Under the pieces are notes generated by a model that was given only the letters and a program-made list of their open reading frames with translations, did not search any database and was not told where the DNA came from. Positions 1-3,254 of a DNA stretch of 64,000 nt are shown one piece after another (the first letter of the stretch is position 1; every line of letters starts with the position of its first letter). A program made the translations under genes and the position numbers. This DNA comes from a virus. Taxonomy: Duplodnaviria > Caudoviricetes. Location: positions 3,043-67,042 of the IMG/VR virus record IMGVR_UViG_3300032292_000722; one strand, 5' to 3'.

Positions 1-1
1 T

Positions 2-88
2 GAATTAATCCATGGCAAATTGAAAAAAACTTTTGACCAACAACGCGTGTTAGATGAGAGATTGTTTGATACTATTTATGCAGGTTAA
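2..88 (+). CDS. 3' end of a hypothetical protein truncated by the window edge
   Basis: Open frame ELIHGKLKKTFDQQRVLDERLFDTIYAG ending in TAA at 86-88, inside hammerhead stem I. Confidence 0.5.
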   Translation, partial: ELIHGKLKKTFDQQRVLDERLFDTIYAG

Positions 89-135
89 CTGATGATGGAA
101 TGAATTTCCGAAACCACCTTCGGGTGGTCTTAACC
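83..135 (+). ncRNA. Type I hammerhead ribozyme HHR1
   Basis: GGTTAA(83-88) CTGATGA(89-95) T GGAA-tgaat-TTCC GAAA(110-113) CCACC-ttcg-GGTGG TC(128-129) TTAACC(130-135). Full conserved core, three helices, UUCG tetraloop, GUC cleavage triplet. Confidence 0.9.
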
Positions 136-149
136 AAAAAATTATAAAC

Positions 150-383
150 ATGGAAACATTAACATTAACACCAATGGATTCTTATCGTGCTTGCTCAATC
201 ATTGAACAATTTTGTGAAGATGTGCCGACTCCTAGAGAAAAAGTAGAGGCATGGGCTTATCTTATCAAGACAGGTGATTGTTGGCGATTACAAGGCTTTT
301 ACGGGCGCTTTGCATCTCAATTAATAGAGAATGGCATTATCGCATCGGACGGCGAAATTTTGACTGATTTAGATAATTATTAA
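150..383 (+). CDS. Conserved phage hypothetical protein (AWAYLIKTG..W.LQG.YGR motif)
   Basis: 77-aa ORF with A-rich leader; motif resembles a small-protein family common in aquatic phages. Confidence 0.8.
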   Translation: METLTLTPMDSYRACSIIEQFCEDVPTPREKVEAWAYLIKTGDCWRLQGFYGRFASQLIENGIIASDGEILTDLDNY

Positions 384-1438: not shown

Positions 1439-1672
1439 ATGGAAAAATACATTGACGCAACACCGAAAGGAACTTTTTACATTAATGAATTAGCCTGCGA
1501 GCTTGCTGATTTATTTATACAGCACACCTATGAACATACTACCGAGGTGATTTGGGAAGATGATGGTGATGGTGGTAGCAGGTACACTGAATTCATACAG
1601 GAACAATTTGATGCCATGCATGACAAGATTGAATCTTACTTATTAAGAAATCAATTGACTAAGGTTAACTGA
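1439..1672 (+). CDS. Hypothetical protein; stop codon lies in the HHR2 core
   Basis: 77-aa ORF ending AAG GTT AAC TGA; TGA(1670-1672) is part of CTGACGA. Confidence 0.75.
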   Translation: MEKYIDATPKGTFYINELACELADLFIQHTYEHTTEVIWEDDGDGGSRYTEFIQEQFDAMHDKIESYLLRNQLTKVN

Positions 1673-1718
1673 CGATGGGTAAATCCTTGAAACGAGCTAG
1701 CAATGGCTCGTATTAACC
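1663..1718 (+). ncRNA. Type I hammerhead ribozyme HHR2
   Basis: GGTTAA(1663-68) CTGACGA(1669-75) T-GGG-taaa-TCC-TT GAAA(1689-92) CGAGCTA-gcaa-TGGCTCG TA(1711-12) TTAACC(1713-18). GNRA loop on stem III, GUA triplet, weak stem II. Confidence 0.75.
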
Positions 1719-1731
1719 AAAAATAAAGATT

Positions 1732-2262
1732 ATGAACATTGAACTTAAAAGTTTCAAGCACTATCAAAAGCTAAGTGATGAAACCTATTGCTTTACTGCT
1801 AATATCTATGTCAATGGTATTAAATGCGGAACCGCTGAGAATCGTGGGATTGGTGGCGAAACAGATTATTCTAGTGACAGAAGGATGGGTAGCGATGAAC
1901 TTATTAAACAAGCCGAACAATATTGTCTTGGCTTACCTAGTGAAACATTGGTAATGGGTGACCGAACGATTACCTTGAACATGAATCTATGTAACTACAT
2001 TGACAATTTTGTAGATGGATTGGTGAAAGCCAAGTACAAAGAAAAAGATGCTCAAAAACTGCGTAAAGAAATGCTTAGTGGCATTCTTATAGGCGATGAC
2101 GAGAAGTACGCTAAAATAGGCTTCAAAATCCCTTTAAGCGATGTTATGGCAAAGCATCCGGAATACTTTCAGAAAACTTTAAAAGAAATGCTAGTTAAAC
2201 ATGGCAAAAATGGGAGCCGATTATTAAATACCAACATACCAAAACATTTTTTACCTAGTTAG
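1732..2262 (+). CDS. Conserved phage hypothetical protein
   Basis: 176-aa ORF starting 19 nt after the predicted HHR2 cleavage site. Confidence 0.85.
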   Translation: MNIELKSFKHYQKLSDETYCFTANIYVNGIKCGTAENRGIGGETDYSSDRRMGSDELIKQAEQYCLGLPSETLVMGDRTITLNMNLCNYIDNFVDGLVKAKYKEKDAQKLRKEMLSGILIGDDEKYAKIGFKIPLSDVMAKHPEYFQKTLKEMLVKHGKNGSRLLNTNIPKHFLPS

Positions 2263-2302
2263 GTTAACGAGGGGTGCGCATTCGTAAAACGCACATTTTT
2301 TT
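2262..2302 (+). other. GGTTAAC-led H-type pseudoknot or terminator-like element
   Basis: ACGAG(2267-71)/TTCGT(2281-85) and GTGCG(2274-78)/CGCAC(2290-94) interleave as a pseudoknot; followed by T7(2296-2302). Confidence 0.45.
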
Positions 2303-2436
2303 AAAAATTATGACTTATCCCTAACAGTGGGGCAAAATTTATTTTTTAAAATTTAAAACAAAAAAGTTACCATATTATTTAATCTATTTTGCTCAATTTA
2401 AAACAAACTAAATTTATAATTATTAAATTATCTAAA

Positions 2437-2604
2437 ATGAAAACCATCAAAAAACTACAAAATCAAATCAAAGCTCTTAACAAAAAATTAGAACTAAACC
2501 AAGCTAAAAATGTCTACGCTGTAATGGGGAAGATTAAAAAATTAAAAGAACAATTGCAGGTAGAAATAGACAATCACAATTGGGAATCATATCTATCAGA
2601 GTAA
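2437..2604 (+). CDS. Coiled-coil hypothetical protein
   Basis: ATG at 2437 with A-rich leader preferred over the upstream TTG start in the ORF track. Confidence 0.65.
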   Translation: MKTIKKLQNQIKALNKKLELNQAKNVYAVMGKIKKLKEQLQVEIDNHNWESYLSE

Positions 2605-2623
2605 ATTAATTAAATTAATTTAT

Positions 2624-2654
2624 TTTGCTGTAACCATAATGATACATATATTTG
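2624..2654 (+). promoter_or_regulatory. Bacteroidota sigma70-type promoter
   Basis: TTTG(2624-27), 19-nt spacer, TATATTTG(2647-54). Confidence 0.75.
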
Positions 2655-2677
2655 TCCTCAAACTAAAAAAAATAACT

Positions 2678-2824
2678 ATGAAACTATTAATTAAAGAAAC
2701 CTTAATTTTTGTATTTGAAATGCTGAAATTCTTTTTCATTAGCGTCCCGCTTGCTTGTTGCGTGTATTTTACGGCGCACCTTTATTTTGAATTTAAAAGA
2801 TTATGCCATGGAAAAAACAGCTAA
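2678..2824 (+). CDS. Small membrane protein
   Basis: MKLLIKETLIFVFEMLKFFFISVPLACCVYFTAHLY..., hydrophobic stretch, downstream of promoter. Confidence 0.6.
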   Translation: MKLLIKETLIFVFEMLKFFFISVPLACCVYFTAHLYFEFKRLCHGKNS

Positions 2825-3044
2825 GAAACTACTATGCGAAACATTCTTTAAGATGTTTAAGAGCGAAGCTTTGCCTAACCTAGATATGGAAGATTTTATA
2901 GCCATGTGGCAAGCATTAGCCGATAAATGGGGAGTAATTAAATCCGATAAAGAATGGGATGAATTTGCAGAAGAGATTAACTGCGTAGCATCCAACAGAG
3001 AAAACTATTTTAACGAAATTTTTGATAAACATTTTAACAATTAA
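2808..3044 (+). CDS. Hypothetical protein
   Basis: Probable start MEKTAKK at 2808. Confidence 0.65.
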   Translation: MEKTAKKLLCETFFKMFKSEALPNLDMEDFIAMWQALADKWGVIKSDKEWDEFAEEINCVASNRENYFNEIFDKHFNN

Positions 3045-3047
3045 ATT

Positions 3048-3254
3048 ATGCAAAAAGAAACAACGACCCACTATTTGCACATGCAAGAAGATGGGCAGTA
3101 CATTACTTTACAACTACCTTTTACTATTATGCCTAATGTAGGAGATTACGTTAGCTTTATTGACGAGATTGGTGAAACACAATTTTTGATAGTAAGTAAA
3201 AGATTATTTAATCAAGCAACCAACAATTTAGTAATAACATTAAAAAACATATAA
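3048..3254 (+). CDS. Hypothetical protein
   Basis: 68-aa ORF in array. Confidence 0.7.
   Translation: MQKETTTHYLHMQEDGQYITLQLPFTIMPNVGDYVSFIDEIGETQFLIVSKRLFNQATNNLVITLKNI

Follow-up and report, generated by a model that had tools for sequence, protein, structure and literature searches.

A type I hammerhead ribozyme with an extra uridine between A9 and G10.1, one of five copies near the left end of a phage genome

What does a hammerhead ribozyme do at the end of a phage gene, and is it still a hammerhead when an extra base is inserted into its core? Both questions are raised by a locus, here called HHR1, near the start of the window, the 64,000-nt stretch of DNA analysed. The IMG/VR virus record to which the window belongs has inverted terminal repeats and is 67,042 bp long, the window covering positions 3043-67042. 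Bacterial and phage hammerheads of type I, including clusters flanking small phage ORFs, are established (PMC3088659, PMC6155905, PMC13725137), and cleavage of polycistronic RNA by clustered phage hammerheads has been documented both in vitro and in E. coli (PMC3088659, PMC6155905, PMC6765202); the processing of polycistronic transcripts is the usual role proposed for them, as yet unproven (PMC6765202). The locus offers a clean example for this old open question: five copies would punctuate one early operon, with the ribozyme incorporating the upstream stop codon and the start codon that comes next lying about 20 nt past the predicted cut, and relatives that carry an ordinary terminator at the same junction supply a natural comparison of 'cut and read on' with 'stop'.

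The HHR1 RNA (window 83-135, + strand) reads GGUUAA / CUGAUGA / U / GGAA-UGAAU-UUCC / GAA / ACCACC-UUCG-GGUGGU / C / UUAACC, and its ends lie in stem I, which makes it a type I hammerhead. The elements listed below were read from the sequence and, for stems II and III, also from the predicted fold, the cut being placed by hammerhead numbering (window positions).

82, + strand: unpaired A directly 5' of stem I, conserved (A in 130/137 family members)
83-135, + strand: HHR1, complete type I hammerhead ribozyme with stem I open (sequence, lowest-energy fold and compensatory changes in orthologues)
83-88, + strand: stem I 5' strand GGUUAA, pairing with UUAACC at 130-135, 6 bp
89-95, + strand: catalytic core C3 U4 G5 A6 U7 G8 A9 (CUGAUGA)
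96, + strand: extra unpaired U in the gap between A9 and G10.1
97-109, + strand: stem II GGAA/UUCC, 4 bp (97-100 with 106-109), and loop II UGAAU (101-105)
110-112, + strand: core G12 A13 A14
113-128, + strand: stem III (113-118 with 123-128), comprising A15.1-U16.1 and CCACC/GGUGG, with a UUCG tetraloop
129, + strand: C17; predicted cut 129/130, which would leave a 2',3'-cyclic phosphate on 129 and a 5'-OH on 130
136-137, + strand: AA directly 3' of stem I, conserved (A+1 in 136/137 and A+2 in 114/137 family members)

This inventory agrees with a first-pass annotation of the same DNA, which had reported all conserved core bases (CUGAUGA, GAAA, GUC), a 6-bp stem I, a single unpaired U between A9 and G10.1, and a 5-bp GC-rich stem III with a UUCG loop, the last helix reaching 6 bp when A15.1-U16.1 is counted. 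The hammerhead three-way junction is the minimum free energy fold of 83-135 and also of 70-150. HHR1 contains (i) the core C3-A9, (ii) G12 A13 A14 together with the A15.1-U16.1 pair (A113-U128), and (iii) a non-G N17 (C129), and departs from the canonical spacing, in which G10.1-C11.1 follows directly after A9, in that U96 stands between A95 and G97, the position of the classical A9/G10.1 metal-binding site. Reading U96 as a second N7 base or as position 10.1 was considered for HHR1 and rejected, G8-A9 and C11.1-G12 leaving it partnerless. An insertion at this place is a known tolerated deviation (PMC3705267), so membership among the hammerheads is still allowed. A descriptor that required the core and a non-G N17, and set minimum lengths of 5 bp for stem I, 3 bp for stem II and 4 bp for stem III, found two sites in the window, HHR1 and a second copy (HHR2), versus a single site in 200 windows simulated with matching dinucleotide composition, and no site in 1.1 Mb of reversed control DNA. 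On this evidence HHR1 is a real, well-supported hammerhead, type I hammerheads as such being already known.

The relation of HHR1 to described families is distant in score and close in architecture. Rfam at the gathering threshold reported no hammerhead in the window or in 13 loci rich in canonical relatives, that is, copies in which the extra base is absent, and HHR1 matched no Rfam hammerhead family even at E<=10. Canonical relatives reach 15-20 bits against RF00163 (Hammerhead_1), below its cut-off of 34, and sister copies and relatives 19.6-28.6 bits against RF03152 (RAGATH-1-hammerhead), below its cut-off of 56.3. RF03152 gives the best Rfam score for the canonical relatives and two sister copies, and the likeness comprises type I topology, a short A/U-rich stem I, a G-A-C-U-U start of stem II and a long stem III; the conserved 5' hairpin and AUAAAAU linker of the RAGATH-1 model are absent here, the corresponding stretch being the end of a coding sequence, aligned with gaps. 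The bacterial and phage type I hammerheads (Perreault et al. 2011, PMC3088659; PMC6155905; RF00163) share with the present family the core, the three-helix junction, the open stem I and the stable, long stem III, and likewise occur in intergenic regions of phage operons, with neighbouring copies flanking small genes of unknown function. The family differs from them in its sub-threshold RF00163 scores, its very regular architecture and its lack of the pseudoknot reported for many bacterial members, and HHR1 in one extra core base. A pairing of loop II with the flanks was sought in all five copies of the genome; the candidates, of 3-5 nt and at inconsistent distances, were rejected by eye. Since Rfam misses every tested copy of this very abundant phage architecture at threshold, phage annotation pipelines will overlook the family.

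A model built from HHR1 alone retrieved four further copies in the same genome (E 3e-14 to 4e-8), giving five in total, all on the + strand and within the first 4.8 kb, three of them upstream of the window.

Genome 967-1027, + strand: HHR-a, without the extra U; stem II GGCC/GGCC
Genome 1428-1479, + strand: HHR-b, with the extra U
Genome 2123-2188, + strand: HHR-c, with the extra U; core CUGAGGA
Window 83-135, + strand: HHR1, with the extra U
Window 1663-1718, + strand: HHR2, core CUGACGA; U1676-U1688 at 10.1/11.1; 8-bp stem III with a GCAA loop; predicted cut after A1712

Stem I, GGUUAA/UUAACC, is common to all five, and stems II and III vary in sequence and length and remain paired; N7 is U, C or G among these copies and any of the four bases across the wider family. 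The same unpaired U had earlier been claimed for HHR2 as well, a reading that the second strand of stem II does not bear out: U1676 faces U1688 across the helix, the A9-to-G12 spacing is therefore canonical, and the base is better read, from the sequence of this copy and its relatives, as part of a U10.1-U11.1 mismatch that replaces G10.1-C11.1 than as a one-sided insertion. The same U-U arrangement is found in unambiguous register in other contigs (e.g., U-UGC-UAAUU-GCA-U), the substitution occurring in HHR2 and in copies from the related contigs L011, L050, L204 and L322; the HHR2 orthologue in L322 is near-identical and displays A-U at 10.2/11.2 where HHR2 has G-U. Hammerheads with a U10.1-U11.1 mismatch are a natural variant reported to be active (Perreault et al. 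2011, PMC3088659), and it is HHR2 that resembles them, whereas HHR1 differs in that its U has no cross-helix partner. In a wider sequence context the lowest-energy fold of HHR2 is not the hammerhead, and its activity is consequently less certain than that of HHR1.

The search pattern composed of the HHR1 stem I, the core and GAAA occurs in at least 120 viral contigs and in 49 bacterial-genome contigs, the latter from Bacteroidota, Pseudomonadota, Bacillota, Cyanobacteriota, Chloroflexota and others. When stems I and III were left unconstrained and the pattern specified only the core, with or without the extra U, a stem II of 4 bp and a U-N-A-N-U loop, it matched at least 120 contigs in the canonical form and at least 119 viral contigs in the extra-U form. 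Of these pattern matches, 108/116 canonical and 106/124 extra-U ones are flanked by a stem I of 6 bp, a properly formed stem III and a non-G N17; since the search pattern contained neither stem I nor stem III, the check is free of circularity. Covariation among homologues, which the first-pass annotation had named as a way of checking the motif, is extensive: among 115 aligned members 99.1% of the cells are paired and 336 cells are changed on both sides, none of 500 shuffles reaching that, and sliding the partner columns by 1-3 positions lowers the pairing to 21-43%.

The aligned relatives disclose a very uniform architecture. The A15.1-U16.1 pair is invariant (105/105 aligned relatives), stem I is exactly 6 bp long in 260 of the 264 members retrieved without a stem I constraint, with G-C as its outer pair, and an unpaired A caps it on each side (130/137 on the 5' side, 136/137 on the 3' side), with a second A beyond. 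Stem II comprises 4 bp across the family, loop II follows the consensus U-N-A-R-U, its U1 and U5 being invariant in 95/95 five-base loops, and N17 is C or A only. The hexamer GGUUAA/UUAACC was considered as a constrained sequence in itself and rejected, the search free of stem I having returned dozens of stem I sequences. A contact between stem I and loop II is needed for fast hammerhead cleavage at physiological Mg2+, and the bases that are candidates for such a tertiary interaction, A-1, A+1 and loop II U1/A3/U5, are near-invariant; judged from this invariance, the flanking A residues and the loop II bases likely form the stem I-loop II contact. A mutual-information scan for tertiary covariation returned lineage structure only, in addition to a link between the extra U and position 10.2 discussed below. 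The regular architecture (6-bp stem I, A/A caps, 4-bp stem II and U-N-A-R-U) was not found described in the literature examined, nor was the HHR1 sequence found in a text search of papers and of the PMC3088659 supplements.

HHR1 sits at the junction of two genes, in a region bounded by putative transcription signals, as follows.

Genome 396-425: promoter motif of the Bacteroidota type (TTG, 17-21 nt, TAnnTTTG), before the first early genes (motif match)
Genome 2228-3130, + strand: DUF932 gene, 300 aa, upstream of HHR1; its UAA stop is window 86-88, inside stem I (frame checked)
Window 150-383, + strand: DUF7417 gene, 77 aa, downstream of HHR1; ATG 20 nt past the predicted cut
Window 2262-2302, + strand: probable intrinsic terminator, comprising GGTTAAC, a hairpin GUGCG/CGCAC (2274-2278 with 2290-2294) and seven T (2296-2302) (motif match)
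Window 2625-2654 (genome 5667-5696): second promoter motif of the Bacteroidota type, just after the putative terminator (motif match)

The GGTTAAC of the terminator element lies at the stop codon of a 176-aa ORF, and the terminator scan missed the element because of its 11-nt loop; an alternative, earlier fold of 2262-2302, an H-type pseudoknot with ACGAG/UUCGU as second stem, is topologically feasible and thus possible. All five hammerheads lie between the promoter motif at genome 396-425 and the terminator-like hairpin at window 2274-2302, and they probably share one early operon closed by the 2262-2302 terminator, the boundaries being drawn at the level of motifs. The placement relative to the coding sequences recurs in the family: the next ATG lies 18-24 nt past the predicted cut in 103/137 members, and the stop codon of the upstream frame often falls inside stem I (UAA) or at the core U4-G5-A6 (UGA).

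Portal and large terminase genes are recognisable in the genome. With the large terminases of Flavobacterium, Cellulophaga, Tenacibaculum and Maribacter podophages, that of the present genome shares 27-29% identity, a similarity from which the host of this podophage-like genome is probably a member of the Flavobacteriia, and both promoter motifs fit a Bacteroidota host. No cultured phage matched the first 6 kb in a megablast search. A copy of the ribozyme was sought in three cultured or published terminase relatives (Flavobacterium phage elemoA, Manatee Spring podovirus and Cellulophaga phage phi38:1) and was absent from all three, so that the ribozyme does not mark their lineage. The leftmost 180 bases of the genome (L001 1-180, outside the window) are very G/T-rich and of low complexity (GGTGGGTTATGGAGGTGG...), unlike the remainder of this genome of 33% G+C. 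A hairpin GUGGAG(U/G)CACCAC follows directly 3' of HHR-c (L001 2189-2215), and also of the hammerheads in the related loci L384, L389 and L391.

Related phages permit the DUF932 junction itself to be compared. Anchoring on the DUF932 protein gave twelve usable loci, and a hammerhead at the end of the gene is kept in four of them. The raw sequences, given here, are better evidence than the MAFFT alignment, which misaligned stem II of the five orthologues.

L389 junction hammerhead: extra U present; stem II GGGGG/CCCCC
L385 junction hammerhead: extra U absent; stem II GCAU/AUGC; stem III with a C-G to U-A double change
L391 junction hammerhead: extra U absent; stem II GGCC/GGCC
L384 junction hammerhead: extra U absent; stem II GUCC/GGAC

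A G+C-rich hairpin resembling an intrinsic terminator, followed by a T run, replaces the ribozyme in L386, L387, L388, L390, L392 and L393 (at ~2376-2470 in each), and in L392 and L393 it comes directly after GGTTAA or GGCTAA. This replacement suggests that ribozyme and terminator are interchangeable at the DUF932 junction and that both define the end of a message, and fits a role of the ribozyme in forming transcript ends. Comparison with L322 adds a different aspect: similarity is high up to or within the ribozymes and collapses just after them (window 1-230 and 1560-1800; L001 860-1110), and HHR2 is 53/56 identical to its L322 copy with both flanking genes diverged, a pattern in which the ribozymes appear to mark the borders of swapped gene cassettes. 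L322 also contains, at 2172-2219, a partial hammerhead-like stretch (CUGAUGAUGGAA...UUCCGAAAC...GUC) with an extra U and without a matching stem I (13.5 bits, E 0.05), which may be a decayed copy.

How widely the extra U is distributed is best judged from the loci found by stem I, the least biased sample, in which the insertion was free to vary; here an extra U is present in 15 of 137 unique copies (~10%) and an extra G in one. Over all sets, the inserted base is U in 118, G in 2 and A in 1 of 121 cases. The extra U is always followed by G10.1 or A10.1, with a purine at 10.2: the purine is present in 118/118 unique extra-U copies (G in 105, A in 13) versus 170/294 canonical copies (58%), an association with a Fisher's exact test value of 4e-23, or of 5e-8 with one copy per stem I sequence. 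No mention of such a purine-10.2 rule was found in the literature examined. The extra U had been taken as a family trait on account of its presence in two copies, an inference that does not survive: HHR-a is without it, it is absent from three of the five DUF932-junction orthologues (HHR1 included), it occurs in about a tenth of the family, and HHR2 has a U-U mismatch instead. Conversely, the L322/L385 orthologue of the U-less HHR-a does have the extra U, and this mixed state among the orthologues of HHR1 and HHR-a indicates gain or loss between close relatives. Across the homologous sequences, then, U96 is a recurrent, tolerated polymorphism with a purine-10.2 rule and not a conserved or fixed family trait. 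Natural hammerheads thus frequently bear a single inserted base at the classical metal-binding site, and the insertion follows a simple rule of sequence.

The earlier comparison of U96 with the insertion of a viroid hammerhead holds. According to PMC3705267 and PMC1636495, which cite De la Pena and Flores (2001), the CChMVd(+) hammerhead is a natural, active ribozyme with one extra nucleotide, A10, at the same place between A9 and G10.1, where it slows cleavage moderately; C or G at position 10 is very harmful, and the A10U change makes cleavage 3-4 fold faster. The dominance of U among the natural insertions (118/121) agrees with this mutagenesis, in which U is the most active base (PMC3705267). 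The two systems differ in that CChMVd(+) is a type III hammerhead of a circular RNA replicon, its extra A also serving viroid folding, whereas HHR1 is a type I hammerhead encoded in phage DNA, with U as the extra base; in addition, the HHR1-type insertion, unlike that of CChMVd, is polymorphic among orthologues and tied to the 10.2 purine.

It is conceivable, if rather doubtful, that the extra-U hammerheads constitute a distinct, selected core variant and not neutral noise, in which the bulged U requires the purine at 10.2. One explanation may be that the U lies in the major groove and forms a U-purine-pyrimidine triple, through the Hoogsteen face, with the second base pair of stem II, much like the bulged U23 of HIV TAR. 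If true, the triple would reshape the A9/G10.1 metal site, with a metal-ion or folding dependence unlike that of canonical copies from the same operon. More simply, the purine rule may do no more than keep the extra U from mispairing with 11.2, which is then a pyrimidine.

As regards function, HHR1 is very probably a functional self-cleaving type I hammerhead of the early + strand operon, cutting the transcript in which it lies; we infer the cleavage, the extent of the operon and the benefit from the features described above, among which the fixed position (stop codon often in stem I or the core, ATG 18-24 nt past the cut) counted for this reading. On transcription of the operon, the RNA would fold into the three-way junction and cut itself after C129. 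The upstream piece would retain the DUF932 gene and end, with a 2',3'-cyclic phosphate, in the two hairpins that make up the compact ribozyme body; the downstream piece would begin with a 5'-OH and a 20-nt A-rich leader, followed by the DUF7417 gene. HHR1 and its four sisters would cut the long early transcript into about six shorter messages, whose separate stability or translation would be the benefit, and U96 would be a bulged base that the core tolerates, not a defining feature.

This reading has to be weighed against the view that HHR1 is decaying or disabled, U96 at A9/G10.1 abolishing or strongly slowing cleavage and leaving a structured spacer only. The location of the insertion in a metal-binding site, the absence of the U from three of the five junction orthologues, and the failure of HHR1 to match an Rfam hammerhead even at E<=10 would be in keeping with decay. 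However, the 118 unique extra-U copies represent 43 stem I sequences and 98 loci, and in every one of them the core is intact and the stems are compensated, a state that neutral decay would not maintain; the insertion is almost invariably U, the only base reported to raise CChMVd activity (PMC3705267), and the strictness of the purine-10.2 rule points towards selection on the variant. Decay is for these reasons an unlikely explanation of HHR1.

Two further proposals grant the structure and place its use elsewhere than in message cutting. According to one, the element is mainly a recombination boundary for cassette swaps or a protective structure at 3' ends, cleavage being incidental, and here the similarity to L322 that stops at the ribozyme, the near-identity of HHR2 (53/56) between diverged flanks, and the exact GGTTAAC...TTAACC ends common to many unrelated phages are what one would look for. 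A recombination signal, on the other hand, needs no invariant catalytic core, A15.1-U16.1 pair, non-G N17 or compensatory stems, and stem I is highly variable in the wider family, with dozens of sequences when left free, so that this role is quite improbable as the main one. The other proposal is ligation or circularisation, in which RtcB or the reverse hammerhead reaction would join the ends of the 1.58-kb RNA released by cuts at HHR1 and HHR2; from the chemistry, this RNA would indeed begin with a 5'-OH and end with a 2',3'-cyclic phosphate. No complementarity would bring these ends together, the ribozyme body remains on the upstream fragment after cleavage with a stem I of only 6 bp, family members are mostly single per locus, and the ATG spacing points to use as mRNA, all of which renders joining of the fragments highly improbable. 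Cutting of the early transcript by a functional HHR1 remains the preferred reading.

One further contig (L073, IMGVR_UViG_3300049491_000350) contains seven hammerheads in ~5 kb, each followed by a conserved 3' sequence of ~27 nt, AAAAGUSAGGYGCASACUAUAACAGGC, perhaps a further RNA element shared by the seven sites or else a leader common to them.
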